DNA of 64,000 nt from assembly GCA_030697645.1 (NCBI GenBank), contig JAUYPI010000006.1, forward strand, positions 76,017 to 140,016, read 5' to 3'. The translations under genes and the position numbers were made by a program. Position 1 is the first letter of the stretch. The number at the start of each line of letters is the position of its first letter. This DNA comes from a bacterium (lineage in GTDB: Bacteria; Patescibacteriota; Minisyncoccia; Phycocordibacterales; VMGT01). Of the stretch, positions 4,921 to 63,009 are shown piece after piece. The notes under the pieces are model-generated. The model worked only from the letters and a program-made list of their open reading frames with translations, was not told where the DNA came from and made no database searches.

Positions 4921-5079
4921 ATCCATGCTGTCTTTGCTTTTTCTTATACTTATGGGTTTGACTGTTTGGTTTGGATTTCAAAAAAAGTTTGTTGCACTCG
5001 CCATAACCTCTACGCTGCTCGTTCTTCTAATCGGGTTTTGGATTTGGCTCGGAACTCAAGTGATAATCAATTAGAGAAG

Positions 5080-6656: not shown

Positions 6657-7262
6657 ATGAACAACAAATCAGCGCCTATCTTCATCATGGTGGTCGTAGG
6701 TGTTCTTGCGATCGTCCTCCTGGGTGGAATGTATTTGTCGCGTTTTTTTTCAACGAGCAACACGGATCGTAGCGGTGCAAAAACTGCCTGCACCCAAGAA
6801 GCAAAACTCTGCCCCGACGGCACCGCCGTCGGCCGCACCGGTCCGAACTGCGAGTTTGAGGCGTGCGCAACTTCGGACAACCAACTGCCAACGACCAATG
6901 AACCGAATACGTCAGAGTGGAAAACGTATCGGAATGAAGAGTATGGGTTTGAGATGAAGTACCCGCCAACATGCCGCGTTTATTTAAATGAGGTATTCGC
7001 GAAGCCGCCTACGCCGACGTGTTTTTCCATTTTTGTGAGAGGGGAGAATAGCTTTAATCTTGAAGAGTTTCTCGAAAGTGCTAAACAAGACAATTCACTT
7101 ACGGCGTTCAAAATCGGCGGTGAGGCCGCTTACCGTATTCAAGGAACCATAAAGAAAATGGATACTATAGTGGTCAAATATAATGGTTTTGTGTACACTT
7201 TTCCGGATGCCGACTTCTTATTACGGGAGGGTATTTTATCCACCGTTAAATTCACCAACTGA
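6657..7262 (+). CDS. Membrane-anchored protein, Cys-motif family member 1 (signal-anchor TM + CTQEAKLCPDGTAVGRTGPNCEFEAC + WKTYRNEEYGFE domain)
   Basis: N-terminal hydrophobic helix IFIMVVVGVLAIVLLGG. Four-cysteine motif. Paralogous to 8159..8887 and to the C-terminal half of 9433..10368. Confidence 0.6.
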   Translation: MNNKSAPIFIMVVVGVLAIVLLGGMYLSRFFSTSNTDRSGAKTACTQEAKLCPDGTAVGRTGPNCEFEACATSDNQLPTTNEPNTSEWKTYRNEEYGFEMKYPPTCRVYLNEVFAKPPTPTCFSIFVRGENSFNLEEFLESAKQDNSLTAFKIGGEAAYRIQGTIKKMDTIVVKYNGFVYTFPDADFLLREGILSTVKFTN

Positions 7263-7266
7263 TCGT

Positions 7267-7407
7267 CTCCATGATTCTTGATTCATAATTCTTACTTCAT
7301 CCGTCATGTTCCTCAACCCATACGCAAAACTCATCCAAAACCCGTTTGATCTCGCCTCGCTCGAGAAAAAGCCGACACGGGACGGCTTCGGAAAGGGTAC
7401 GTGTTGA
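7267..7407 (+). repeat. Partial copy 1 of the tktB 5' region (native-looking leader plus 34 codons, then a stop)
   Basis: ctccatgattcttgattcataattcttacttcatccgtcATG..., encoding MFLNPYAKLIQNPFDLASLEKKPTRDGFGKGTC*. This matches the tkt C-subunit N-terminus NPFDLTALEKKPTRDGFGKG at 10365. Confidence 0.6.
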
Positions 7408-8158: not shown

Positions 8159-8887
8159 ATGCACAAGCGCACCACAATTGTTTCTCTGGCACTCATCATT
8201 GCCGCCGCGGGCGGGTATGTGCTGTATGCTTCAATCATTGGAGACGTGACGCAGGACAGTGGAAGTACGCAGGCGTGCACTGAGGAAGCAAAACTCTGCC
8301 CGGATGGCAGCACCGTAGGCCGCACCGGGCCGAACTGCGAGTTTGCGGCCTGTCCCAGTCCGGAAATTATTTTTGGTAAGAAAGCCGAGGAATTATGCGG
8401 GCCGCAGCCACCGGCAGAGTGTGGGCCAGGAACAGCGCTCGGATGTTACACGAAAAGCAAAAAGTGGTCTTGTTACCCAGAAATGACTGGGTTTGATACC
8501 TCGGACTGGAAAACCTACCGGAGTGAGGAGTATGGGTTTGAAGTGCGTTACCCACAACAATGGTACAAACACGAAGCGGAGCTATTTCTTTTTTTAACTC
8601 CGACGAGCCCTGAGGTTATTACCGAATCACCTGGGATTAACTTTGTTCTGAAGCCGCTCGAAGGGCGAACAATCCAGCAGTCAGAGGATACGATAAATTT
8701 TGATCGCGAGTGCCAGCCAACAATTTTTGGAGGAAGAGGTGCGACCAAATGTCATCCGGTTATTTCTTTTGCTGGAGAAAGCTTTACATTTATTCGAATG
8801 TCAGACGGCCAGTATCTTTCAATCGGTGATTATTTAACGAGCGATCTTTCTGGCCTCATTCTCTCCACCTTCAAGTTCACCAAATGA
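8159..8887 (+). CDS. Membrane-anchored protein, Cys-motif family member 2 (TM + CTEEAKLCPDGSTVGRTGPNCEFAAC + WKTYRSEEYGFE domain)
   Basis: TM helix IVSLALIIAAAGGYVLYA. Same four-cysteine motif. Extra Cys-rich stretch CGPQPPAECGPGTALGC. Paralog of 6657..7262. Confidence 0.6.
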   Translation: MHKRTTIVSLALIIAAAGGYVLYASIIGDVTQDSGSTQACTEEAKLCPDGSTVGRTGPNCEFAACPSPEIIFGKKAEELCGPQPPAECGPGTALGCYTKSKKWSCYPEMTGFDTSDWKTYRSEEYGFEVRYPQQWYKHEAELFLFLTPTSPEVITESPGINFVLKPLEGRTIQQSEDTINFDRECQPTIFGGRGATKCHPVISFAGESFTFIRMSDGQYLSIGDYLTSDLSGLILSTFKFTK

Positions 8888-8891
8888 GCGC

Positions 8892-9050
8892 CTCCATGAT
8901 TCTTGATTCATAATTCTTACTTCATCCGTCATGTCCCTCAACCCCCAAGCAAAACTCGTCCCCAACCCTTTCGACATCGCCTCGCTCGAAAAGAAGCCCA
9001 CACGGGATGGGTTCGGGAAAGGCCTTGTTGAGGCCGGAGAGATAGAAATA
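8892..9050 (+). repeat. Partial copy 2 of the tktB 5' region (same leader; ATG at 8931; 37 native codons)
   Basis: Encodes MSLNPQAKLVPNPFDIASLEKKPTRDGFGKGLVEAGE then diverges. The leader is identical over about 45 nt to copy 1. Confidence 0.6.
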
Positions 9051-10368: not shown

Positions 10369-11390
10369 ATTGTATGATTTACAGAGACGCGCATCTCGTC
10401 GAAAACCCTTTCGACCTCACCGCGCTCGAGAAAAAGCCGACGCGCGATGGGTTTGGAAAAGGCCTCGTTGAGGCTGGGGAGAAAGACCCCCGCGTGGTGG
10501 TGCTGTGCGCTGACCTTGCGGATTCCACGCGCGCGCAGTGGTTTCGGGATAAGTTTCCGGATCGCTACATCGAGCTTGGAGTTGCGGAGCAGAACATGGC
10601 GACGGTTGCAAGCGGGCTTGCGAACTACGGGAAGATTCCCTTCATGGCCTCATACGCGGCATTCAATCCGGGGCGCAACAATGAGCAAATCAGGACGACG
10701 ATCGCGCTCAATAATGTGCCGGTGAAAATCGTGGGCTCGCATGGCGGTATCAGCGTCGCGCAGGACGGTGCCACGCACCAGGCGCTCGAAGATGTGGGAC
10801 TTATGCGTATGCAGCCGAACATGGTGGTCATTGTGCCAGTGGATGCCGAAGAGGCGCGGAAGGCAACGTATGCTGCGGCGTTCAACGGGGCTCCGACATA
10901 TCTCCGCTACACGCGTGACAACCGGCCGGTGTTCACCACCGCCGACTCTCCGTTTGAGATAGGGAGGGCGAATTTGCTCTGGGACGGTAATCCCGAGGGA
11001 GACCTCGACGTCGCTGTCATCGGCTGCTCCCCGGTCCTGCACAATGCGCTCATGGCGGTTAAAGAGCTCGCCGAAGAGCGCGGACTTAAGATTGCGGTGC
11101 TGAATTGCCACACAATAAAACCGCTCGACCGCGATGCGATTGTCGGCATTGCAAAGCGAGCCGGAGCCGTTGTCACCGCCGAGGAACACCAAATCGCTGG
11201 CGGCATGGGCTCGGCAATCGCAGAACTACTTGTCCAAGAACATCCAGTACCGATTGAATTCGTCGGCGTCCACGATCGCTTCGGCCAGTCAGGAACCGTC
11301 GAGGAACTTTTCAAGGAATACGGCCTCGATGCGTCGCACATCAAGGAGGCGATCGTGCGGGTGCATGGACGAAAACAAGCCCTTAACTAA
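10365..11390 (+). CDS. Transketolase, C-terminal (pyrimidine-binding/C-terminal domain) subunit
   Basis: NPFDLTALEKKPTRDGFGKG..GSHGGISVAQDGATHQALEDVGLMR, plus a C-terminal domain. The first ~13 codons differ from the two upstream fragment copies. The tracked start is TTG at 10365; the true start may be the ATG at 10374. Confidence 0.85.
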   Translation: MNCMIYRDAHLVENPFDLTALEKKPTRDGFGKGLVEAGEKDPRVVVLCADLADSTRAQWFRDKFPDRYIELGVAEQNMATVASGLANYGKIPFMASYAAFNPGRNNEQIRTTIALNNVPVKIVGSHGGISVAQDGATHQALEDVGLMRMQPNMVVIVPVDAEEARKATYAAAFNGAPTYLRYTRDNRPVFTTADSPFEIGRANLLWDGNPEGDLDVAVIGCSPVLHNALMAVKELAEERGLKIAVLNCHTIKPLDRDAIVGIAKRAGAVVTAEEHQIAGGMGSAIAELLVQEHPVPIEFVGVHDRFGQSGTVEELFKEYGLDASHIKEAIVRVHGRKQALN

Positions 11391-13732: not shown

Positions 13733-13786
13733 CTGATTTTGTACTAAAAACTCTTGCTTTTTTTAAATAGATATGGTATCCTTTTG

Positions 13787-13818
13787 TTGGATAGTTGGAT
13801 AGTTGGATAGTTGGATAG
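13787..13818. repeat. Tandem octamer repeat (TTGGATAG)x4
   Basis: Exact four-fold tandem repeat upstream of the 13865 gene. Confidence 0.8.
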
Positions 13819-16791: not shown

Positions 16792-16865
16792 GCGGCCGTA
16801 GCTTAGCCTGGAAAAGCGCTGCCCTGTCACGGCAGAGATCGAGGGTTCAAATCCCTTCGGCCGCG
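16792..16865 (+). tRNA. tRNA-Asp (anticodon GTC)
   Basis: Acceptor GCGGCCG/CGGCCGC. Anticodon stem CTGCC/GGCAG with loop CTGTCAC. T-arm GAGGGTTCAAATCCCTTC. No encoded CCA. TACAAT -10 about 15 nt upstream. Confidence 0.8.
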
Positions 16866-20130: not shown

Positions 20131-20334
20131 ACCCGCGATGCGTTGACAGAATTATCAGAACGACCAAACGCCTCCCCGTGCGATATCGGGGAGGTGTTTG
20201 GGGGGTTTCTGTGCAACAATTTTTGCTAGAATCAGTTCAATTGTCGCTATGAGCAAAGATGTCGGGCGACCCCCGCCGTGCGAAAGCTCCAAGCTTCAAA
20301 AAACAAGCTCCAGTTCATGTAAATTCCAAGCTCC

Positions 20335-20470
20335 AACCAACAATTTCAAAACAAACTTCAAATTCCAATGCATCAAATCTCAAACACGTACGTCGTGTTT
20401 GGAAATTGGATTTTGAATATTGAGATTTGTTTGGAAATTGTTGGTTGGAAATTGGAGCTTCGTCGTGGTG
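20335..20470. repeat. Intergenic k-mer palindromic element (ttggaaatt family), long imperfect inverted repeat centred on cacgtacgtcgtg
   Basis: caaacttcaaattccaatgcatcaaatctcaaacacg | cgtgtttggaaattggattttgaatattgagatttgtttggaaattg. Shares an exact 21-mer with the element at 59359-59379 (reverse complement). Confidence 0.7.
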
Positions 20471-22531: not shown

Positions 22532-23275
22532 ATGCAACCGGACGTCGAGGACAGTTATTTGGTGAAAACGGTCGGTTTTGAAGGACCGCTCGACCTCCTG
22601 CTTACTTTAATCGAGGATCGAAAACTTTCGATCAGCGAGGTTGCCTTGGCTTCCGTGGCGGATGCATACACGGCACATGTACGGGCCCTAGAGCGTGTAC
22701 CGGTGGGCGAGACCGCGCAGTTCGTGCTCACCGCTGCAACACTCCTCCTCATAAAGTCGCGCTCGCTCTTGCCGACGCTCGATTTCACGAGCGAGGAAGA
22801 AGGCGACATTCGCGATCTCGAAGAGCGGCTGCGGCGGCTCGCTGTCCTGCGCGAGTCGGCGCGAGAGCTCGCTCGTTTGGCGGCAGGTCCGGCGCTCTAT
22901 GCGCGTCGTGCTCGCGTTGAGCCGATTCCGATTTTTGCGCCCGGAAGTCGGCTCACCATGGCGGTTATTGTCGAGACTGTCCAGGGCATCGTGAGTTCGG
23001 TGTCGTCCGAGGCGTCTCGTATCCCGGAGACTCTTGTACGCCGGACGGTACACCTAGAAGAAGTGGTGCGCACGCTCGCCGAGCGGATCGAGCGTGCGTT
23101 TGCAGTGAGTTTTTCCGACATCAGAGCGGCATCACGGGACCGGCTTGATCTTATAGTAAGCTTCCTCGCGTTGCTTGAACTCGTGAGGCGCGGCGGGGTA
23201 GCTGCCGCGCAGGAAGCGCCGTTTGCGGACATTACCATTGAAGGCGATCACGTGGGCGTGCCAAGGTACGACTAA
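22532..23275 (+). CDS. scpA: Segregation and condensation protein A
   Basis: FEGPLDLLLTLIEDRKLSISEVALASVADAY. About 247 aa. Confidence 0.7.
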   Translation: MQPDVEDSYLVKTVGFEGPLDLLLTLIEDRKLSISEVALASVADAYTAHVRALERVPVGETAQFVLTAATLLLIKSRSLLPTLDFTSEEEGDIRDLEERLRRLAVLRESARELARLAAGPALYARRARVEPIPIFAPGSRLTMAVIVETVQGIVSSVSSEASRIPETLVRRTVHLEEVVRTLAERIERAFAVSFSDIRAASRDRLDLIVSFLALLELVRRGGVAAAQEAPFADITIEGDHVGVPRYD

Positions 23276-23280
23276 CGAAT

Positions 23281-23317
23281 TTCAAATTTTCAAGTGACCA
23301 ATTTCCAACAGGGCGTC
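23281..23317. repeat. Short copy of the ttggaaatt-family element immediately after the scpA stop
   Basis: cgaatttcaaattttcaagtgaccaatttccaacagg matches 55957-55993 at 31/37. Confidence 0.6.
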
Positions 23318-23575
23318 ACGATCTTGCTTGTTACCTACGCCCTGCGTGTGCTTGCTATCGCCTTTATATTCTCCTTGCCATCGTTGCCGCAAAGTACGGC
23401 TGGCGGTTCGCGTGCGGTTTTGGAAGGCATAACTGACCTGCCGCACTTTTAAGAGTCAAGGCAGGTTTACCGAGCGAGCGGTCTGTGCTTTTTTATCTAG
23501 CGTACACACGCCCTCTCTTGCGGGAGAGGGCGTGTGTTGCTTGCTGCACTGCCGCATGTTGCGTGTTGTCCGTTG

Positions 23576-29404: not shown

Positions 29405-29618
29405 TTTGTAATAAAAATCAACAACAGAATAAATATCTGTCCCGTATGGGTTAGGTGAGCACCTTGTCGGATGGCAGGTTGCTGGAGCGTCATCGGGCCT
29501 ATTCCCTCGGCTCACTCTTGATACTTATTCTGTTATAAATGTACCTGATACAAATGTACCAAAACGTATATCGCGCCGGCAATGTTTAGTAGTTTTAGGA
29601 AACAATAAAATCAAACTG

Positions 29619-37554: not shown

Positions 37555-37770
37555 GTATACTACACTTTGATAATAGACCTCTCACAACACAAAACACAAA
37601 CAAAGCACAAATCCAAAAGCCACAAAACACAAACACGTAGTGCAACCGTTTTGGTTTTGGAATTTGTGTTTTGATGTTTTGTTTGTGCTTTGTAATTTTG
37701 GCTTTGGGCTTTCGTTTGTTTTGTTTCGAATTTCGCTATTCAAATTTGTGCTTTTTACAAGCTAACAGCC
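37555..37770. repeat. Intergenic k-mer palindromic element (caaaacacaaa / tttgtgttttg family)
   Basis: caaaacacaaacaaagcacaaatccaaaagccacaaaacacaaacacg...cgttttggttttggaatttgtgttttgatgttttgtttgtgctttg: arms built from the same k-mers in opposite orientation. Confidence 0.65.
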
Positions 37771-37775
37771 ATAAG

Positions 37776-39347
37776 CTACGAGCTCGCATGGTGCCCCAGC
37801 GCCGCGCGGATTTTGCGCTTGGCGAGGCCGGTTTTCACAAAGGCGAGCCACTTCCGCGTCGGCCGGGCGAATTCTCGGGTCTCGATCTCGACGATGTCGC
37901 CGTTGTGAAGTGCGGTGTCAAGTGAGACAAGCTTACCATTTACTTTGACGCCCGAGGCGTGGTCTCCGATTTCAGAGTGAATTGCATAGGCGAAGTCAAG
38001 GGGCCCGGCGCCAAGCGGCAGATCAACCACGTCGCCCTGCGGCGTGAAGACGAACACGCGGTGACTGAAGAAATCGGCTCGGAGGTGCTCGAGAAATTCT
38101 TTCGGGTCGCTGACGTCGGCTTGCGCCTCCGCGAGCTCGCGGAGCCACTCAGGGGTCGCGGGGCTCGCTACGGCGAGCGACGGTTCGTTCGCGCGCGCGT
38201 TTTGGAACCAGTAGCGGTATGAGAGGCGCTGTCCGATCCACGCGAGATGCGTGAGAAGCGAGCGGCTGTCGCCGCCTTCCTTGTAGAGAAAGTGCGAGGC
38301 GATCCCGTATTCCGCTCTCCGATGCATCTCCTCGGTGCGGATTTGAATCTCGACAACGCCGCCGCCCCCTGTGAAGATCGTGGTGTGGAGTGAGCGATAG
38401 CCGTTCGGCTTCGGGAACGCGATGTAGTCTTTGATGCGCCCCGGGAGCGGCCGCCATGTTTTGTGGACAATCCCGAGCGCGCGGTAGCAGTCCTCAACCG
38501 TGGGTACGATGATCCGGAGCGCTGAGATGTCGTACACTTTGTTGATATCCATGTCTTTGCGCTCGAGCTTGCGAAAGAGGGAATAGAGCCCCTTCAGCCG
38601 GAATGACGTCTGTGCCTCGCGGATGCCATCGAGCGCGAGATTTTTTTGGAGCGTCCGATGCACCCCTCTGAGGTGTGCTGCGGTTTCGGCGTCTTTTTCC
38701 TTGAGCAGCGCCGTTACGTGCTCGTACTCTTTCGGGTAGACGAAGGGAAAGGCGAGGTCCTCGAGGTCGCGGTTCAGCGCCCGCATGCCGAGGCGGTAAG
38801 CGAGCGGCGCGTAGATCTCGAGCGTCTCCTCGGCGATGCGTCGGCGTTTGTGTGCCGGCACATGCTCGAGCGTTTGCATGTTGTGCAGGCGATCCGCGAA
38901 CTTGATGATGAGGACGCGGATATCGCGCGCGACCGCGACAAAGAGCTTGCGCAGGCTCTCGACGTGGCGCGTCAGGCCGCGGTATTTGAGGGTCCCGAGC
39001 TTCGTGACCCCTTCAACGAGCGAGAGTATCTCGTCGCCAAATTCCGCGCGTACATCCTCAGCGGTCGCCGGCGTGTCCTCGATCACGTCGTGGAGGAGCC
39101 CCGCGGCGATCGTCTTCGCGCCCATGCCGAACTCGGCGAGTGTCTTTGCCACGGCAAAGACATGCGTGAAGTACGGCTCGCCAGAGAAACGCAGATGTCC
39201 CTCATGCGAGCGCTCCGCAAACCCGTAGGCCTTCTCAATGAGCGCGACGTCGTCTTTCGACGGTTCGCGTATGAGGGAAGTTATGTCCTTGACAGATGGC
39301 ATAGGGGCAGCACACTCATGTAACATTTGACATGTAACATTTGACAC
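37776..39347 (-). CDS. rel: Bifunctional (p)ppGpp synthetase/hydrolase (RelA/SpoT family)
   Basis: HD hydrolase motif GLLHDVIEDT. Synthetase domain RIKDYIAFPKPNGYRSLHT. TGS region. 523 aa (no ACT domain). Confidence 0.85.
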   Translation of the reverse strand: MSNVTCQMLHECAAPMPSVKDITSLIREPSKDDVALIEKAYGFAERSHEGHLRFSGEPYFTHVFAVAKTLAEFGMGAKTIAAGLLHDVIEDTPATAEDVRAEFGDEILSLVEGVTKLGTLKYRGLTRHVESLRKLFVAVARDIRVLIIKFADRLHNMQTLEHVPAHKRRRIAEETLEIYAPLAYRLGMRALNRDLEDLAFPFVYPKEYEHVTALLKEKDAETAAHLRGVHRTLQKNLALDGIREAQTSFRLKGLYSLFRKLERKDMDINKVYDISALRIIVPTVEDCYRALGIVHKTWRPLPGRIKDYIAFPKPNGYRSLHTTIFTGGGGVVEIQIRTEEMHRRAEYGIASHFLYKEGGDSRSLLTHLAWIGQRLSYRYWFQNARANEPSLAVASPATPEWLRELAEAQADVSDPKEFLEHLRADFFSHRVFVFTPQGDVVDLPLGAGPLDFAYAIHSEIGDHASGVKVNGKLVSLDTALHNGDIVEIETREFARPTRKWLAFVKTGLAKRKIRAALGHHASS

Positions 39348-39400
39348 GACGACGGGCGTTCTAGGTCAAATGTCAACGGTCAATTGTCAAATGTTCGACC
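39300..39400. repeat. Intergenic k-mer palindromic element (catgtaacatttgaca family)
   Basis: catgtaacatttgacatgtaacatttgacacgacgacgggcg...ggtcaaatgtcaacggtcaattgtcaaatgttcg. Overlaps the rel start codon. Confidence 0.55.
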
Positions 39401-39419
39401 GGACTTAGCCCCCTGCTGC

Positions 39420-41705
39420 TTATTGCTCGTTGCCTGTTGCTCGTCCGCCCGGCCGGTGATTTGCACACTCTTTATTACTGCAGCGCTCAGGAATGGTTTT
39501 CGTCCCCTCCATCATGAGTGAGCCGCAGAGGGGGCAGATGCGGCCGGTTGGTTTTGCTTTGATTGCATGTTTGCACGCGGGGTAGTTTGAACAGCCGTAG
39601 AAGAGTCCGAATTTCCCGCGCCGCTCCGCCATCTCGCCCTTGCCGCATTTTGGACAAGGAACGCCCGTGCTTGTCGCTTGCTGCGTGCTGCTTGCCGCCT
39701 TTTTAATATACTTGCACTTCGGATACTTGCCGCACCCAACAAACTTTCCAAATTTTCCATCGCGTTCGACAAGCGCGCCGCCGCACTCGGGGCAGCGCTC
39801 GCCGGTCTCCTGGGGCGGCTTCACCTCCTCGCCGTGCTCCGACCGCGCGCCTTCGCATTCGGGAAACCTGCTACAGCTCATGAACGTGCCGGAGCGGCTG
39901 AGCTTCATCACCATGGCGCTCCCGCAGGTCGGGCAGCGAAATTGCTTTGGTGCGGGACCGAGATCCGTGAGCCGCGGGACGTTCTGTCTTGCCGCGACGT
40001 CCTTGCTAAACGGCGTGTAGAAATCGGCAAGCGTCTTGGCATACTCGCGCGCTCCGCGCGCGATATCGTCGAGTTCATCCTCCATCTTCGAGGTGAAGGT
40101 ATCGCTTATGTAGGAGGCAAAATTTTTCTCGAGGAACGTGCTTACGACATCGCCCATCGCGGTGGGCTTCAGTGACCGGCCTTCTTTCTCGACGTATTCG
40201 CGATCCTGGATCGTCTTGATGATGGAGGCGTATGTCGAAGGCCTGCCGATGCCGCGTTTTTCAAGTTCCTTCACGAGCCCCGCTTCGCTGTAGCGTGGCG
40301 GGGGCTGCGTTTGTTTGCCCTCGCTCTCGAGCGAGCGGAGAGTGAGTGGTTCCTCGCGAGCGACTTTCGGAAGCTCGATGTCCTCGCCGCGCGAGGCCGG
40401 GTCCGCGGCGAGCCAGCCGTCAAATTTTGTGCGGGAGCCAATGGCAGAAAATGCGGGAACGTCTTTTGCTTCTATGGGTACTGCGACGCGCGCCGTAATT
40501 TTCGTCTTGATGAGCTCGGCCGCGGCCATCTGGCTTGCGAGCGTACGTGCGCGGATCAGCGCGTAGAGGCGTTTTTGCTCTTCGGTAGCGCCTGCGGATG
40601 CGCGCGTGATGTCCGTCGGACGGATCGCCTCGTGCGCTTCCTGCGCGCTTTTGCTCGTGGTTTTATACTGTCGCAGCGTGACATACCGCTCGCCGAATTT
40701 CTTGGTGACAGCTGCGCCGATTGAGCTCCGGGCTTCCTCTGCGAGCGTCGTCGAATCGGTGCGCATGTAGGTGATGTGCCCCTGCTCATAGAGCTGCTGC
40801 GCAGTGCGCATGGTGCGCGCCGGGGAGAAGCCGAGCCGCGAGCTTGCGGCCTGCTGGAGGGTCGAGGTCGTGAACGGAGAGCGCGGGGCCCGAGACGTTT
40901 CCGTCTCGAGTACCTCGGCGACAATCCAGCTGCCGCTGCGGCCGACTTTGAGTATTCGCTCCGCCTCCTCGCGGGTCTTTGGCTCCTCGACGCACACGAG
41001 CGTCATGCCACTCCCTTTTTTTGTCGCACAGAGCGCGGTGAGCACCCAGTAGTTCTCCGGCACGAACGCGCGGATCTCTCGCTCGCGCTCGACGAGAATA
41101 CGCAGGGCAGGGGACTGCACTCGGCCTGCCGAGAGCCCGTAGCGGAGCTTCTTCCAGAGTAGGCCCGAGAGGTCGTAGCCGACGAGGCGGTCGAGGACTC
41201 TGCGCGCCTCCTGCGCCCTGACGAGCCGCTCGTCAATATCTCGCGGATGCGCGAGCGCTTCTTTCACTGCGCGCTCCGTAATTTCGTGGAAGACCACACG
41301 TTTAACGTTTGGAATTTGGAATTTGGAATTTGGAATTTGTTTGGAGCTTGTTTTTTGGAATTTGGAATTTCCGAGGCCGAGCGCCTCGGCGACGTGCCAC
41401 GCGATCGCCTCGCCCTCTCGATCCGGGTCGGTCGCAAGCAGCACTTCGTCCGCTTTTTTTGCTGCAGCTTTGAGATCGGCGATAACTTTTGTTTTCTCCG
41501 GGATGATTTCGTAGTGCGGCGCGAATCCGTGCGCAATGTCCACCGCGTTTTCATTCTTCTTCGGCAGATCACGCACATGGCCCACCGAGGCCTTGACGCT
41601 GTAGCCCGGCCCCAGGTATTTGCTGATCGTTTTCGATTTTGCAGGAGATTCGACGATGACGAGTTTCATACGAGCAGTATGCAGCGTGCAGCAGGCAGTA
41701 AGCAA
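39420..41705 (-). CDS. topA: DNA topoisomerase I with C-terminal zinc ribbons; contains an in-frame repeat-derived insertion
   Basis: Toprim MKLVIVESPAKSKTISKYLG. Active-site region. C-terminal CPTCGS/CPECGG/CPKCGKG/CPLCGS zinc fingers. Confidence 0.85.
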   Translation of the reverse strand: MLTACCTLHTARMKLVIVESPAKSKTISKYLGPGYSVKASVGHVRDLPKKNENAVDIAHGFAPHYEIIPEKTKVIADLKAAAKKADEVLLATDPDREGEAIAWHVAEALGLGNSKFQKTSSKQIPNSKFQIPNVKRVVFHEITERAVKEALAHPRDIDERLVRAQEARRVLDRLVGYDLSGLLWKKLRYGLSAGRVQSPALRILVEREREIRAFVPENYWVLTALCATKKGSGMTLVCVEEPKTREEAERILKVGRSGSWIVAEVLETETSRAPRSPFTTSTLQQAASSRLGFSPARTMRTAQQLYEQGHITYMRTDSTTLAEEARSSIGAAVTKKFGERYVTLRQYKTTSKSAQEAHEAIRPTDITRASAGATEEQKRLYALIRARTLASQMAAAELIKTKITARVAVPIEAKDVPAFSAIGSRTKFDGWLAADPASRGEDIELPKVAREEPLTLRSLESEGKQTQPPPRYSEAGLVKELEKRGIGRPSTYASIIKTIQDREYVEKEGRSLKPTAMGDVVSTFLEKNFASYISDTFTSKMEDELDDIARGAREYAKTLADFYTPFSKDVAARQNVPRLTDLGPAPKQFRCPTCGSAMVMKLSRSGTFMSCSRFPECEGARSEHGEEVKPPQETGERCPECGGALVERDGKFGKFVGCGKYPKCKYIKKAASSTQQATSTGVPCPKCGKGEMAERRGKFGLFYGCSNYPACKHAIKAKPTGRICPLCGSLMMEGTKTIPERCSNKECANHRPGGRATGNEQ
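41306..41372. repeat. ttggaattt-family k-mer repeat inserted in frame inside topA
   Basis: gtttggaatttggaatttggaatttggaatttgtttggagcttgttttttggaatttggaatttcc, coding GNSKFQKTSSKQIPNSKFQIPNVK on the minus strand. Confidence 0.65.
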
Positions 41706-41841
41706 GCGTCGTGTGCTTGCTGCATGCTGCTAATCGCTTGCTGCTTGTAACAATTACTACAGTTCCTTCGCCTTGGCAAATAAATAAAGTCTCCGACCAC
41801 AGACGTTTGTGATCGGAGACGCATATACGGAAGTCGCTGGT

Positions 41842-42087
41842 TCACTTGATCTCGGCTGCCTCCTCATTTTTTTGGTCGAATTCATGCGCAGCCGCGAGGG
41901 CCATACCGAGAAAAGTGAATCCGAAAATGAAACAGCCTATGACCATGAACGGACTCATGGGCCAAAAACTTGAGAAGTAACCTACTACTGATGTGGCGAC
42001 ACTCACGAAAAATATGCTACAGGACGCCAGGACGAGCGTCTTGTACAGGTCTACCCCACAGTGCGAACACGAGCGGTCTTTCATCAC
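41842..42087 (-). CDS. Small membrane protein (81 aa, two TM helices)
   Basis: Hydrophobic helices VLASCSIFFVSVATSVVGYF and VIGCFIFGFTFLGMALAAA. Confidence 0.35.
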   Translation of the reverse strand: MMKDRSCSHCGVDLYKTLVLASCSIFFVSVATSVVGYFSSFWPMSPFMVIGCFIFGFTFLGMALAAAHEFDQKNEEAAEIK

Positions 42088-42185
42088 AAACCCTCCGGAG
42101 TTGTTGCATATATATTGGGCGCACGGTGTTGCTTGGATGCTTCTTCTGGCAATGAGTAAATCATCTATGCTACCATTGTGTCAAC

Positions 42186-43133
42186 ATGACGCCAATCATC
42201 GAAGTCGAACACCTTATCAAACGCTACCGGAAAGCCACCAAAAACGCCGTGGATGATATTTCGTTCTCGGTCGCGGAGGGCGAGTTTTTTGCCCTCCTCG
42301 GGCCAAACGGGGCGGGGAAGACGACGACGATCTCTGTCCTTACGACGACGCTCGCCAAAACCTCGGGTCGGGTGTTGATTGCGGGCTTTGACCTCGAGCG
42401 CGACGAGCACGCGATCCGCCGCGCCTCCGGCGTGGTTTTCCAGGGCTCCTGCGTGGATCTCAACCTCACGGCGGAGGAGAACATCCGTTTCCACGCATTT
42501 CTCTACGGGCTCTATCCGTTTCGTCCGCTCTACGCGCTGATGCCGCGCAGCTATCGCGCCCGGGTGCATGAGCTCGCCGAGCTCATGGGAATTACCGCGG
42601 CTCTTTTTCAGCCGATGCACACCTTCTCCGGCGGCATGCGTCGCAAGCTCGAGCTCGTACGCTCTCTGATGCACCGCCCCAAGGTGCTCTTTCTCGACGA
42701 GCCGACTGCGGGGCTTGATCCCCTAAGCCGCCGCGCGCTCTGGAGCTATCTCGCCGACATCCGCAAGCGCGAGCGCGTCACGATACTTCTCACGACGCAC
42801 TACCTCGAGGAGGCAGAGAGCGCTGACAACGTCGCGATCATCAACGATGGAAAAATCGTTACGTACGGAACGCCGAAAGAGCTCACGCGCACCCTGCTCG
42901 GGGACACGCTTATTGTAGACGCCGTTGACCGCGGCTCTCTCCGTAGCGCGCTTCTAAAATTCACCAACCGCGTGAGCGAAACGCCGCCGTTTCGCGTTGC
43001 TTTGAGTAAGGACCTACGTGCGCAAGACGTCGTCCGTTCGCTCTCTGTGGAGCTGACGCTATTCGATATTGAACGGCCGACGCTGGAAGACGCATATCTT
43101 AAAATTATTGGGAGCGATACAGATGCGTCATGA
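42186..43133 (+). CDS. ABC transporter ATP-binding protein
   Basis: Walker A GPNGAGKTTT. Signature FSGGMRRKLEL. Walker B VLFLDEPTAGLD. Confidence 0.8.
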   Translation: MTPIIEVEHLIKRYRKATKNAVDDISFSVAEGEFFALLGPNGAGKTTTISVLTTTLAKTSGRVLIAGFDLERDEHAIRRASGVVFQGSCVDLNLTAEENIRFHAFLYGLYPFRPLYALMPRSYRARVHELAELMGITAALFQPMHTFSGGMRRKLELVRSLMHRPKVLFLDEPTAGLDPLSRRALWSYLADIRKRERVTILLTTHYLEEAESADNVAIINDGKIVTYGTPKELTRTLLGDTLIVDAVDRGSLRSALLKFTNRVSETPPFRVALSKDLRAQDVVRSLSVELTLFDIERPTLEDAYLKIIGSDTDAS

Positions 43134-43134
43134 T

Positions 43135-43265
43135 TACGAATGTCAAAGTTCAAAACGCAAGCAAAGTCAAAAGTCAAAACGCAAAAGTCAAAACCGCAGC
43201 CTCAAAGTCAAAAGTTTGAAAGGTTTTAGGCTGTGGTTTTGAGCTTTGACTTTTGCGTTTTGACT
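43135..43265. repeat. Intergenic k-mer palindromic element (gtcaaaagtcaaaacgcaaa family) forming a long hairpin
   Basis: gtcaaaacgcaaaagtcaaaaccgcagcctcaaag...aggctgtggttttgagctttgacttttgcgttttgac. Confidence 0.65.
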
Positions 43266-43277
43266 TGGCTTGTAGCA

Positions 43278-44184: not shown

Positions 44185-45204
44185 ATGCTCAAAACAAAAA
44201 TGCAAAAATTAAAATTACAATTCAATATGCAAAATGTGCTTATTGTTGGCCTCTCGTTCGGTGTGGTCGTCTTGCTCGTGGTGACTGCCCGCGCGGAGCA
44301 CCAACGCAGAAAAGAGGTGCTCCTCCAAAAGAGTACGGCGCTTGAGAGCGTGGTTGCTACAACGACCCTCCCGAGTCCTTTTTCCTCTCTCGCGCTTGAT
44401 GCGCGCGCGGCGATTGTCTGGGACGTCGCTCTAGCCCGTCCGCTCTACAGCCGAAATGCCGACGCACAGCTGCCGCTTGCCTCGCTCACGAAGCTCATGA
44501 CCGTGCTTCTCGCGCATGAGCGTATATCGCCTCCGGTGACACTCACCATCGCGCCGTCCGCTCTCGCACCTGAGGGCGACAACGGGCTTTTCCCGGAGGA
44601 AGAGTGGCGGCTACGCGACCTCATAGGCTATACCTTGATCGTTTCCTCAAATGACGGTGCGCGAGCGCTTGCGGCTGCCGCGGGTAGCGTGGGCGGCATG
44701 GTGAGCGGGCCGTCGTCCGAGAGCAAGGCACTCGAGACATTCGTTACGGCAATGAATGAGCGCGCGATAGAGCTCGGGCTTACGCAAACGTACTTTCTCA
44801 ACGAGAGTGGGCTCGACACCTCCGAGGCGGTGAGCGGGGGATACGGATCCGCGCATGACGTTGCGCGGCTCCTCGCCGAAGCGCTCCATGAGATTCCAGC
44901 GGAGCTCGAAATGACACGCACGAAAGCTCTTGCCGTGCGCTCGCTCTCCGGCGTGGTACACGACGCGGAGAACACCAATGAGGTGGTAAACCGCATTCCG
45001 GCTTTGATCGGCGGCAAAACAGGCTACACCGATCTTGCGGGAGGAAACCTCGCCATCGTCTTTGATGCGGGGTTCGCACGGCCAATCGCCGTCGTCGTCC
45101 TGGGCTCAACACAGGCCGGGCGGTTTAGCGACGTCGAGCGGCTTGTGTGGGCGACGCTGGAGTATCTCAAAGTGTGCACCGCAGAACAAACGATATGCAT
45201 ATAA
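44185..45204 (+). CDS. D-alanyl-D-alanine carboxypeptidase (serine-type, PBP5/6 family)
   Basis: SxxK ASLTK. SxN VSSND. KTG GGKTGYTDLAGGN. N-terminal signal anchor. Start uncertain (44185, 44200 or 44227). Confidence 0.7.
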   Translation: MLKTKMQKLKLQFNMQNVLIVGLSFGVVVLLVVTARAEHQRRKEVLLQKSTALESVVATTTLPSPFSSLALDARAAIVWDVALARPLYSRNADAQLPLASLTKLMTVLLAHERISPPVTLTIAPSALAPEGDNGLFPEEEWRLRDLIGYTLIVSSNDGARALAAAAGSVGGMVSGPSSESKALETFVTAMNERAIELGLTQTYFLNESGLDTSEAVSGGYGSAHDVARLLAEALHEIPAELEMTRTKALAVRSLSGVVHDAENTNEVVNRIPALIGGKTGYTDLAGGNLAIVFDAGFARPIAVVVLGSTQAGRFSDVERLVWATLEYLKVCTAEQTICI

Positions 45205-45224: not shown

Positions 45225-45370
45225 CACCCGCATTAATTTTCAATTTTGCAATTTTCAATGAATTTTCAATGTGTCAATGACTCAATGGCGGACGACGTCG
45301 TGTTTGAAAATTGTGTCATTGCAAAATTGATTGAAAATTGAAAATTGAACATTGGAAATTTCTGACTCAA
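45225..45370. repeat. Intergenic k-mer palindromic element (caaaattgaaaattg family), copy flanking mraY upstream
   Basis: Shares an exact 24-mer cattgcaaaattgattgaaaattg (45317-45340) and the core cgtgtttgaaaattg with the copy at 46486-46650. Confidence 0.7.
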
Positions 45371-45414: not shown

Positions 45415-46485
45415 ATGATAATAAATGTAGCTAAAGTCTTCCTTCCCGCCACCATTGCTTTCGCGATCGGTGTCGTGTTCGCGCCGCTCCTGGCACACTA
45501 CTTATACCGCTTTCGCATGTGGAAGAAGAGTGCGAAAGCGGTAGCGCTCGACGGCCGTGGTACGCCGATCTTTCACTCGCTCCACCGCGATAGGGAAACA
45601 TCGACGCCGAAACTTGGCGGCATCGTGATCTGGGGAAGCACGCTTGTGACAGTACTTCTCATCAGAATTGCCGAAGACGTCATTCCCTCAGCGCTCACGG
45701 CAAAACTTGAGTTCCTCAGTCGTTCGCAGACGTGGCTGCCACTCGTAACACTCCTCGTGGGGGCAACCATCGGTTTTATAGACGACATGCTTGATGTGCG
45801 GGGAGGCGGAAAGTACCTCGCTGGTGGACTTTCGCTCCGGATGCGGCTCGGTATCGTTGCTTTGACCGGACTCATCGGTGGGTGGTGGTTTTTCACGAAA
45901 CTTGGAGTCTCAAGCATCATAGTGCCGTTTGCCGGTGAGGTGATACTCGGCTGGCTCCTCGTGCCGCTCTTCATCATCGTTCTGCTCGCGATCTACTCAG
46001 GCGGCGTCATTGATGGTATTGATGGCCTTGCCGGCGGGGTGTTTGCGGCGATATTCGGCGCGTATGGTGGCATCGCGTTTTTTCAAAACCAGATTGACCT
46101 CGCGGCATTCTCGGCGGTCGTCGTTGGCGGCATTCTTGCTTTTCTCTGGTTTAACATTCCACCTGCTCGATTCTATATGTCCGAGACAGGCACCATGGGG
46201 CTTACCATGACGCTCGCGGTCGTCGCATTTCTCACCAAGGCCGTCGTCGTCTTGCCCATAATCGCTTTTCCGCTGCTTGCCACAACCGCCTCGGACGTGA
46301 TCCAGCTCGCTTCAAAGCGCTTCCGCGGAGGGAGAAAGGTGTTCCTTATCGCGCCAGTGCACCACCACTTCGAAGCCCTCGGCTGGCCGCCGTACAAAGT
46401 GACGATGCGTTACTGGGTGATTTCGGTCATCTGCGCGCTCCTTGGCATGATCGTGGCCCTCGTGGGGAACCAGGTCACGCTTTGA
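45415..46485 (+). CDS. mraY: Phospho-N-acetylmuramoyl-pentapeptide transferase
   Basis: Polytopic membrane protein with a DD-containing cytoplasmic loop IDDMLDVRGG and HHHFE. Confidence 0.85.
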   Translation: MIINVAKVFLPATIAFAIGVVFAPLLAHYLYRFRMWKKSAKAVALDGRGTPIFHSLHRDRETSTPKLGGIVIWGSTLVTVLLIRIAEDVIPSALTAKLEFLSRSQTWLPLVTLLVGATIGFIDDMLDVRGGGKYLAGGLSLRMRLGIVALTGLIGGWWFFTKLGVSSIIVPFAGEVILGWLLVPLFIIVLLAIYSGGVIDGIDGLAGGVFAAIFGAYGGIAFFQNQIDLAAFSAVVVGGILAFLWFNIPPARFYMSETGTMGLTMTLAVVAFLTKAVVVLPIIAFPLLATTASDVIQLASKRFRGGRKVFLIAPVHHHFEALGWPPYKVTMRYWVISVICALLGMIVALVGNQVTL

Positions 46486-46650
46486 ATTTTCAATTTTCAA
46501 TGCTCAATTTTCAATAAATTTTCAATCCGCCAGCTGGCGGACCCAATGGCTCAATGACGAATCACGGACGAACGTCAGCGTGTTTGAAAATTGATTCATT
46601 GCAAAATTGATTGAAAATTGGAAAATTGATAATTGAAAATTCAGACTCGA
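46486..46650. repeat. Intergenic k-mer palindromic element (caaaattgaaaattg family), copy flanking mraY downstream
   Basis: 24-mer cattgcaaaattgattgaaaattg at 46597-46620. Arms gaattttcaattttcaatgctcaattttcaat / attgaaaattggaaaattgataattgaaaattc. Confidence 0.7.
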
Positions 46651-47814: not shown

Positions 47815-47890
47815 AGGATAGAAAGTGGAGAGTGGATTTTTTACTCCCACACTCTACATTCTACTTTCCACTCTCTACTTTCCACTTTCC
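47815..47890. repeat. Intergenic k-mer palindromic element (ggaaagtgg / ccactttcc family)
   Basis: agaaagtggagagtggatttttt actcccacactctacattctactttccactctctactttccactttcc. Confidence 0.55.
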
Positions 47891-47894
47891 AACC

Positions 47895-49034: not shown

Positions 49035-49039
49035 TTTTT

Positions 49040-49130
49040 GATAACGACGGGTTTTGGAATTTTACTTGTTGTTTTACGTTGTTGTTTTGCGCTTTTCGTT
49101 TTGCGTTTTGCATTTTCTGATATAGAGTCA
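49040..49130. repeat. k-mer low-complexity tract (gttttgcg/ttgttttac units) upstream of tRNA-Glu
   Basis: ttttacttgttgttttacgttgttgttttgcgcttttcgttttgcgttttgc. Confidence 0.4.
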
Positions 49131-54559: not shown

Positions 54560-55951
<1,392 letters not shown>

Positions 55952-55956
55952 CGAAT

Positions 55957-56064
55957 TTCCAATTTCCAAGTGGTCAATTTCCAAGCAAATTTCAAATGCT
56001 CAAATCTCAAATTAAACTTCGTACTTCGGATTTTGTACATCGGATGTCAGCGTCGGCAATTTTT
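55957..56064. repeat. ttggaaatt-family element after the atpD stop, plus copy 1 of a 24-bp repeat (acatcggatgtcagcgtcggcaatt)
   Basis: cgaatttccaatttccaagtggtcaatttccaagcaaatttcaaatgctcaaatctcaaatt. 56041-56064 matches 62938-62961. Confidence 0.6.
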
Positions 56065-59305: not shown

Positions 59306-59319
59306 ACGCGCATAACGAA

Positions 59320-59390
59320 TTTCCAAATTCCAAAAAACCCGTCTCCAAACACGACGTGCGTGTTTGAGATTTGATGCATTTTTCGCTTTA
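59320..59390. repeat. ttggaaatt-family element after the M23 peptidase stop; contains the exact 21-mer reverse-complement match to 20368-20388
   Basis: cgaatttccaaattccaaaaaacccgtctccaaacacgacgtgcgtgtttgagatttgatgcat. 59359-59379 is the reverse complement of atgcatcaaatctcaaacacg. Confidence 0.7.
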
Positions 59391-60508: not shown

Positions 60509-60545
60509 TTTGCAATAACAATGCGATCGCTTGCTTATTGCACAT
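60509..60545. repeat. 37-bp nested-palindrome repeat, copy 1 (tttgcaataacaatgcgatcgcttgcttattgcacat) at the 3' end of pepA
   Basis: Outer inverted repeat tgcaataa/ttattgca around palindromic gcgatcgc. 34/37 identical to 62973-63009. Confidence 0.6.
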
Positions 60546-62937: not shown

Positions 62938-63009
62938 ACATCGGATGTCAACGCTGGCAATTATGTGGCAATTTTGCAATAACTATGCGATCGCTTGCTT
63001 ATTGCAAAT
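62938..63009. repeat. Copy 2 of the 24-bp repeat (acatcggatgtcaacgctggcaatt) followed by copy 2 of the 37-bp nested palindrome; plus T-tract (possible bidirectional terminator)
   Basis: tttgcaataactatgcgatcgcttgcttattgcaaat followed by ttttttta. Confidence 0.6.

Follow-up and report, generated by a model that had tools for sequence, protein, structure and literature searches.

The stretch analysed here, called the window below, comprises 64,000 nucleotides (64 kb) of contig JAUYPI010000006.1 from a bacterium of the Patescibacteriota. Its gene topA, for DNA topoisomerase I, harbours a tract of seven-nucleotide repeats within the coding sequence, and this tract is the subject of the present report. 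Pfam recognises a Toprim domain (PF01751, E 9.5e-21), a Topoisom_bac domain (PF01131, E 9.9e-119) and three C-terminal zinc ribbons (Zn_ribbon_Top1, PF01396) in the product, which aligns with E. coli TopA (4rul) at E 5e-140. Residue E7, the motif D81-x-D83-x-E85 and Y301 in the motif GHITYMRTDS align with the catalytic motifs of the E. coli enzyme, and VESPAK, ATDPDREGE and GHITYMRTDS are invariant in the homolog alignment (A1). The protein is identical to NCBI entry MDZ4284752.1, and its best homologs belong to the Parcubacteria/Paceibacteria of the candidate phyla radiation (CPR). Judged by these sequence features, the open reading frame (ORF) is a complete type IA topoisomerase and not a pseudogene.

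The tract lies at 41306-41372 of the window, where the plus strand reads GTTTGGAATTTGGAATTTGGAATTTGGAATTTGTTTGGAGCTTGTTTTTTGGAATTTGGAATTTCC, a low-GC sequence built of TTTGGAA heptamer units. Tandem Repeats Finder (TRF) reports a period of 7 with 9.4 copies at 41308-41370. Four exact copies of the 15-mer TTGGAATTTGGAATT lie within the tract, and nine matches with two mismatches or fewer are present in the whole window, where 0.21 are expected. An earlier note on this DNA had proposed a repeat tract inside topA that keeps the frame. Both points are borne out, the first by the period-7 array and the exact 15-mers, the second by the minus-strand ORF (39420-41705), which reads through the tract without a stop or a frameshift, so that no frameshifted pseudogene is present. 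The tract encodes residues G100-N121 (GNSKFQKTSSKQIPNSKFQIPN), and the insert is positioned between the helix GEAIAWHVAEALGL and the strand VKRVVFHEIT. Among the 120 closest homologs, a spacer of 11 residues (typically LAETIGLKKPK) between GEAIAWH and RxVFxEIT is the rule, whereas the window has 31. The net gain over this consensus is 20 residues or 60 nt, which makes the insertion real but the earlier figure of about 22 residues slightly high. The gain is a multiple of three even though the tract is a tandem array, with four exact copies, of a 7-nt unit that is not. The alignment with E. coli TopA has an 18-residue gap exactly at the insert, in keeping with the short loop that the note had ascribed to that enzyme. 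Neither direct repeats flanking the tract nor inverted ends were found at this site, that is, no target-site duplication (TSD) and no terminal inverted repeats (TIR).

Some other explanations of the tract could be rejected. An assembly artefact is incompatible with the homologous inserts, with the same junctions, in the independent assemblies L001 and L092. An internal antisense promoter was dismissed because a promoter and terminator scan of 39200-42300 gave no promoter-like site in or near the tract. A programmed -1 frameshift at CAAAAAAC was also discarded, since the codons read in the zero frame (CAA AAA ACA) depart from the pattern X_XXY_YYZ.

The structural setting of the insert was modelled with AlphaFold2 from a 42-sequence alignment (mean pLDDT, the per-residue confidence, 78). 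Residues 102-117 are the only part of the Toprim region with a pLDDT below 50, and the flanking helix (86-96) and strand (121-125) are confidently modelled. According to Foldseek, the model matches the 67-kDa fragment of E. coli TopA (1mw9) with a TM score of 0.83 at 3.8 Å. The insert is translated as a hydrophilic, probably disordered surface loop of 20 residues. This loop joins the helix that follows the DxDxE motif to the last β-strand of the TopA Toprim domain. Given the parallel α/β, Rossmann-like topology of Toprim domains, it would point away from the acidic catalytic cluster. Its position is predicted to be compatible with the TopA fold. The suggestion that the insertion is tolerated as a loop thus agrees with the model, in which the Toprim elements on either side are intact and the segment joining them is predicted to be disordered.

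Long, imperfect, AT-rich hairpins, here referred to as elements, occupy most of the spacers that separate co-directional genes in the window (Table 1). A left arm (xxxxCAA)n and a right arm (TTGxxxx)n flank a GC-rich cap, which in many cases is CAAACACG-loop-CGTGTTTG; the units vary by locus. Their folds beat those of shuffled sequences (z -8.8, -8.1, -5.9 and -4.4). An Rfam search of the whole window at gathering scores returned only four tRNAs and a SAM (S-adenosylmethionine) riboswitch, with no match to the elements or the tract.

The sense strand of the topA tract aligns with the reverse complement of 20397-20456 over 60 nt, ungapped, at 80% identity. This match runs from the outer end of one arm of the element at 20285-20470 to the CCAAAC beside its cap, and the 60 nt of the insert equal the length of the aligned part of the arm. 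The other arm of the same element matches the tract over 48 nt (81%). A further match, to 59317-59351 (35 nt, 89%), includes an exact run of 18 nt and the outer terminus of that element. The best ungapped score was 24, whereas a pure array scored 14 and shuffled sequences gave 12.7±1.3 (dinucleotides; 0/300 reached 24) or 14.6±2.0 (heptamer blocks; 1/300). Because the score exceeds that of the block shuffles, the match lies in the order of the non-periodic variants and goes beyond composition. On the strength of these alignments, in which the 64 kb of the window were compared, the tract is derived from an intergenic repeat family of the same genome. A relation to this family had been claimed before, and the 60-nt and 35-nt matches uphold it against the shuffle controls. 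The unit ttggagcttg, which had been placed at 20440-20470, proved approximate: that interval reads TTGGAGCTTC, while an exact 16-mer, TGGAGCTTGTTTTTTG, is the reverse complement of 20297-20312. The tract corresponds to a single arm, an incomplete palindrome without internal pairing that is unpaired in the mRNA. No similar tract was found in the other genes among the approximately 55 ORFs of the window. A second candidate within an ORF, at 44197-44232, was rejected, since that gene likely starts further downstream and the candidate would then fall between genes.

Table 1. Coordinates of topA, its insert and the hairpin elements in the window
Feature	Position	Strand	Basis
topA, type IA DNA topoisomerase I, 749 aa, intact, ATG at 41669	39420..41669	-	ORF, Pfam, E. 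coli alignment
Inserted 60 nt, 20 extra codons G100-I119 (GNSKFQKTSSKQIPNSKFQI)	41313..41372	-	residues gained in comparison with 120 homologs
Perfect core array (AATTCCA)x4, sense strand	41309..41337	-	three overlapping exact 15-mer matches; TRF
GC-rich coding hairpin CCGAGGC-GCUCG-GCCUCGG, codons A94-G100, directly 5' of insert	41371..41389	-	RNA fold of 41290-41390
Hairpin element most similar to the topA tract, which matches both of its arms	20285..20470		fold z = -8.8; alignments
Short element, starts TAACGAATTTCCAAATTCCAAAAAAC, matches 5' end of the topA tract	59313..59383	+	35 nt, 89%; terminus motif
Hairpin element, GTCAAA-type units, topA-relA spacer	39317..39399		one arm matches L002 insert
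Further hairpin elements	37575-37730, 41690-41750, 43140-43272, 45230-45365, 46480-46645, 47847-47891		
Half elements	23273-23320, 49035-49115, 55949-56020		

The insert is shared with related genomes. L001 (P0003), with 88% TopA identity, has (AAATTCG)x4 together with non-array sequence between the same two junctions as the window (G/A-NSKF… …IPNVK), and L092 (P0004; 69%) has (GAAATTCCAAATCC)x2.3 behind the same 5' junction. These inserts are homologous to that of the window and have shared junctions, with lengths of +32 and +9 aa compared with +20 aa. Because the relatives share junctions but differ in length, the insert of the window can be identified as one state of an older, fast-remodelling tract. 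Other relatives possess other units: four exact GGTCAAA units (+12 aa) in L002 (P0002; 81%), AGTCAAA-type units in L086 (63%), CTAAAAA-type units in L005 (60%), AAAAAAC units in L084 (P0025; 65%) and AAAAACC units in L048 (46%). The inserts of L050 (45%) and L078 (41%) are long and non-periodic. All recovered topA alleles are in frame. The (GGTCAAA)x4 insert of L002 aligns with the arm at 39365-39399 of the window over 35 nt (86%), including the non-repeated end GTTCGAC, and the insert of L086 matches 43164-43193 at 87%. The TopA protein of the window is the only member of its 90% cluster, and the relatives at 88% and 81% identity are the nearest; the GTDB genome scan yielded none above 64% and did not return the genome of the window itself, and all JGI TopA proteins are at most 67% identical.

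Comparison with the 120 homologs shows how often this site has been used. Approximately 18 of them have extra residues at exactly this point, +7 to +32 aa in length, all rich in K, S, Q, N and P and all mutually different. In a census of indels, the loop is the dominant insertion site, with 18 sequences compared with 9 at residues 395-403, 2 at 629 and 1 at 675. The insert-bearing proteins fall into at least eight clades of a neighbour-joining tree of TopA homologs, built without the loop, where they are nested among relatives with the 11-residue spacer. The heptamer units at the same codon boundary differ by lineage (GGTCAAA, AGTCAAA, CTAAAAA, AAAAACC and others), and the encoded peptides differ likewise, with no conserved element peptide. 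A common feature of the insert-bearing proteins is a hydrophobic-K/R-R junction (VKR, IKR, LKR or FKR) instead of PKR. Since arrays built of other heptamers occupy the same loop in at least eight separate clades of Paceibacteria-like TopA, the alignments mark it as a recurrent hot spot for such arrays. The earlier note had envisaged one invasion. Comparable loops at this site in distant lineages speak in part against that, although most of them are themselves heptamer arrays. What survives is the repeat origin, the preserved frame and the tolerated loop; a one-off recent event does not, the site being shared, remodelled and reused. Two arrays elsewhere in topA may be mentioned: L001 has (CAAGCAG)x3.9 at 4973-4999, in the linker between zinc ribbons, which resembles an AAGCAGC-type element just downstream, and L005 has a short heptamer or 14-mer array at another variable spot (11159-11187).

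The orientation of the arrays is uniform. Every topA array has its A-rich strand as the coding (sense) strand. Read in this direction, perfect arrays are stop-free and hydrophilic (mean Kyte-Doolittle values of -0.9 to -3.3), whereas the opposite orientation gives F/W/L-rich peptides or stops. In L005, a perfect CTAAAAA unit would produce TAA in the third phase, and the real array has CTCAAAA exactly there. This orientation rule and the avoided stop argue that selection filters the mutational input and does not build or shape a specific sequence.

Directly upstream of the insert, the coding sequence can form a stable GC-rich hairpin (Table 1). It lies in the 27 nt 5' of the insertion point and has 7-9 bp, formed by the (Q/E)A-x-GL codons and the first inserted codon. 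In the window, the 27-nt segment folds with a free energy (dG) of -14.9 kcal/mol, and the last two bases of the stem belong to the first inserted codon. Hairpins at this place are stronger in insert-bearing genes, with a mean dG of -9.8 in 12 insert-bearing topA genes compared with -3.0 in 67 others (Mann-Whitney p = 3e-6). Values of -7.5 kcal/mol or lower are found in 10/12 of the former and in 6/67 of the latter. Uninserted sister lineages are intermediate (-11.5, -6.6, -6.0, -4.8 and -3.5). Period-7 arrays elsewhere at the locus are also denser where an insert is present, with a median of 2.6 compared with 0.5 per 10 kb (p = 0.008). As the hairpin tests are uncorrected for phylogeny, the coding hairpin is regarded as a candidate predisposing factor only.

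The units of the intergenic elements change as well. At orthologous spots, upstream of the topA ATG and in the topA-relA spacer, the window, L001 and L002 have different units, so rapid unit turnover characterises these repeats in general. In the window (41690-41750), L001 (2790-2860) and L002 (1890-1989), the topA ATG follows within a few bases of the end of a hairpin element; its units in the three genomes are AAGCAGC, GGAGAGT and GTGGAAA/GTAGAAA, respectively. Just upstream of this element, L001 and L002 have an identical 40-nt stretch with TATAGT. The exact motif TAACGAATTTCMAA starts three repeat arms (23273, 55949 and 59313; 0 expected). Its TAA doubles as the stop codon of the preceding gene at 23273 and 55949, where the repeat may abut or supply the gene end; no TSD was seen at the intergenic copies with this end. 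One may ask whether the elements serve as hairpins of 5'-untranslated regions or as terminators.

The most probable origin of the tract, favoured here with some reserve, is that of a one-armed copy of the intergenic repeats, made by templated copying at a hot spot adjacent to a hairpin and subsequently altered by slippage under purifying selection on frame and orientation. The mutational hot spot would be the sequence just 3' of the stable GC-rich coding hairpin. Template switching or gene conversion may bring in arms of repeats that stem from other arrays, and the copied arrays could then expand, contract and become homogenised by slippage. Selection would retain variants that keep the frame, are stop-free in three phases and have the A-rich orientation, which encodes K/N/S/Q/P and not F/W/L. 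Observed directly are the intact gene, the homology to the repeats, the recurrence at one site, the orientation of the arrays, the neighbouring hairpin and the low confidence of the modelled loop; how the copy was made, that the insert is neutral and that the hairpin plays a causal part are what we infer. The "invasion" of the gene that the earlier note had put forward is not demonstrated; templated copying or slippage at the site itself explains the tract no less well. The tract comprises one arm only, no TSD accompanies it, and a GC-rich hairpin adjoins the insert in 10/12 insert-bearing genes. Transposition is unsupported because TSD, terminal inverted repeats and a second arm are all lacking at the topA tract.

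Several points weigh against the proposed copying from intergenic repeats. Besides the absence of TSD, terminal inverted repeats and a second arm, no donor copy of more than 90% identity occurs in the 64-kb window. Likewise, a BLAST search of each insert against the relatives' own flanks (up to 22 kb) gave no convincing donor arrays. Strong hairpins without an insert exist in L089 (-11.5), L065 (-10.0) and L051 (-10.8), and the statistics on hairpins and array density ignore phylogeny. The perfect lineage-specific arrays of L002 and L086 could come from local slippage alone, and the recurrent retention at one site could reflect a selected function. Finally, both the neutrality and the disorder of the insert come from structure prediction only.

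A bolder proposal, which must be considered tentative, is that the heptamer arrays are not ordinary mobile repeats but may be written de novo at the base of GC-rich hairpins by lineage-specific replication or repair. Between genes, both flanks would grow and be kept complementary, giving rise to the long AT-rich hairpins. In topA, the accidental coding hairpin of the (Q/E)A-x-GL codons would act as the nucleus, and only the flank in the permissive loop would survive. If this were true, the TopA loop would be a natural reporter of an undescribed, hairpin-directed mechanism of templated insertion.

A purely local microsatellite is a rather unlikely alternative. According to it, a replication-stalling hairpin and in-situ slippage in a 7-nt register produced the A-rich loop, and the likeness to the intergenic elements reflects a shared mutational bias. 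The four exact units in the window and in L002, and the lineage-specific unit at the one topA site, fit this explanation. Turnover in situ is also suggested by the orthologous intergenic spots, whose units are not the same in the window as in L001 or L002, and the association with a hairpin is compatible with it. Moreover, heptanucleotide repeats are the commonest long repeats of this kind in prokaryotes, for which a model of slippage related to the polymerase footprint has been proposed (PMC4679880). However, along the 60 nt of the match to 20285-20470 the non-periodic variants (…CAAAAAACAAGCTCCAAACAAAT…) follow one another in the same order, and the match scores above 299/300 block shuffles, and a pure array scores 14 against the observed 24. 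The non-repeated terminus GTTCGAC shared by the L002 insert and a window element is likewise difficult to explain by local slippage.

It is improbable, though less so than a genetic switch, that the insert is a selected Lys/Ser/Gln-rich loop, possibly making an additional contact of the Toprim domain with nucleic acid or a partner, for which the repeats were merely the raw material. Independent gains at one site in at least eight clades, retention across 69-88% TopA identity, a uniformly basic and hydrophilic composition and the common hydrophobic-K/R-R junction replacing PKR would all suit such a function. Against it, the loop has no sequence conservation, varies in length from +7 to +32 aa, is modelled with low confidence and is absent from most close relatives and from E. 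coli. Its composition follows from the sole stop-free, hydrophilic reading of A-rich heptamers. A phase-variable contingency switch, in which gain or loss of one 7-nt unit would frameshift topA and toggle the enzyme on and off in the population, is very improbable: the unit length is not a multiple of three and four units are perfect, but topA is single-copy here and generally needed, every recovered sequence is in frame with no out-of-frame variant among them, and four units are short for efficient slippage.

Among known systems, the closest analogue of the topA tract is the Rickettsia palindromic elements (RPEs), which according to PMC10969869, summarising Ogata et al. 2000, occur as in-frame insertions in housekeeping genes. 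RPEs resemble the present elements in being dispersed, hairpin-forming, non-autonomous and mostly located between genes, with fold-compatible copies that are translated in frame inside housekeeping genes. They are whole palindromes of approximately 100-150 bp, compared with one arm of 60 nt in topA. Each RPE family has a conserved peptide, and its insertions are scattered over many genes; in the topA case, 7-nt units that vary by lineage have repeatedly hit one loop of one gene. The tract thus has in common with RPEs a dispersed family in the same genome and an in-frame loop predicted to be compatible with the fold, and it lacks a complete palindrome and a conserved peptide.

Heptanucleotide arrays themselves are not new; the cyanobacterial STRR repeats, for instance, are heptanucleotide repeats. 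Known heptanucleotide simple sequence repeats (SSRs) and the present arrays are both tandem, mostly intergenic, present in many unit variants per genome and occasionally found in ORFs in a stop-free orientation, and a slippage origin has been proposed. The difference is that the known SSRs are direct arrays, whereas the present elements are paired into long hairpins. Long heptanucleotide SSRs are the commonest in prokaryotes (Mrazek et al. 2007, as cited in PMC4679880), and the same paper mentions intergenic heptamer arrays in Beggiatoaceae and cyanobacteria (TAACTGA repeats) and in some Bacteroidetes. In the literature searched, no report was found of heptamer arrays as a recurrent, site-specific, in-frame insert in a conserved enzyme, nor any description of heptamer-array hairpins or of a TopA insert in CPR bacteria.

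Like REP/BIME/REPIN sequences and MITE hairpins, the present elements are short, intergenic and located after stop codons or between co-directional genes. REPINs and MITEs have a conserved sequence, conserved termini and a cognate transposase (RAYT or of an insertion sequence), whereas the arms of the present elements consist of low-complexity, lineage-specific units, with no TIR or TSD found, no transposase evident and no Rfam match. The combination of terminal inverted repeats and a target-site duplication, which characterises MITEs, is also absent from the topA tract. A TIGR-Tas array was considered and rejected, as the AT-rich hairpins give no hint of a guide array; no search for a Tas-like protein was made in the window. 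Quasipalindrome or template-switch mutagenesis at hairpins is an established mechanism in E. coli, with classical events that are corrections of a few nucleotides. It resembles the present case in the stable hairpin at the site of mutation, the first inserted codon that extends the stem and the arms of the elements that are kept complementary. Whereas such corrections are short, topA gained tens of nucleotides of array, and the mechanism proposed for this gain is putative.

When the array peptide (NSKFQIP)x6 was searched against 5.8 billion proteins, only domain-less ORFs of 30-74 aa, which are miscalled intergenic arrays, were retrieved. No other real host protein was found in this search, which is insensitive to short embedded tracts and missed P0001 itself. 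The 87 tiny "hypothetical proteins" P0121-P0207 (30-74 aa), from many metagenomes and from Aequorivita genomes, are translated (AAATTCC)-like arrays; heptamer arrays are therefore widespread and routinely miscalled as genes. Long intergenic arrays called as tiny ORFs illustrate how heptamer tracts can mislead gene callers, and alignments and phylogenies may be affected as well.

Selfish or low-complexity repeats translated within essential genes are a known phenomenon, to which the present case adds the hairpin-adjacent recurrence at one site. It suggests that even in very small, Paceibacteria-like CPR genomes, low-complexity repeats from between genes find their way into the coding sequence of an essential, highly conserved enzyme and become part of the protein. 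The topA insert would thereby offer a clean natural example of repeat-driven loop evolution. The idea that hairpins seed heptamer arrays is now testable, as one codon boundary, beside a coding hairpin, has been reused in at least eight lineages with one tolerable orientation. In addition, the loop marks a permissive insertion site in TopA that is potentially usable for tagging.

Other features of the window include the SAM (S-box) riboswitch at 29430-29527 on the minus strand (54 bits, above the Rfam gathering score) and the tRNAs at 16792, 18394, 27986 and 49138. Approximately 100 nt are nearly duplicated at 7233-7330 and 8858-8957. Each copy covers the end of one of two neighbouring ORFs (6657-7262 and 8159-8887) with the adjoining downstream sequence and contains the same TGATTCT/CATAATTCTTAATT mini-array; the arrangement suggests a local gene duplication. 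A perfect octamer array, (GTTGGATA)x4, at 13786-13818 directly precedes the ORF that starts at 13811; it is the one clear case of period 8 among many period-7 arrays. A 33-nt imperfect palindrome, TTGCAATAACNATGCGATCGCTTGCTTATTGCA, is present at 60510-60542 and 62974-63006 (0 expected) and could be a protein-binding site or the hairpin of a small RNA; a near-copy lies downstream of relA in L001 (approximately 6995-7040).

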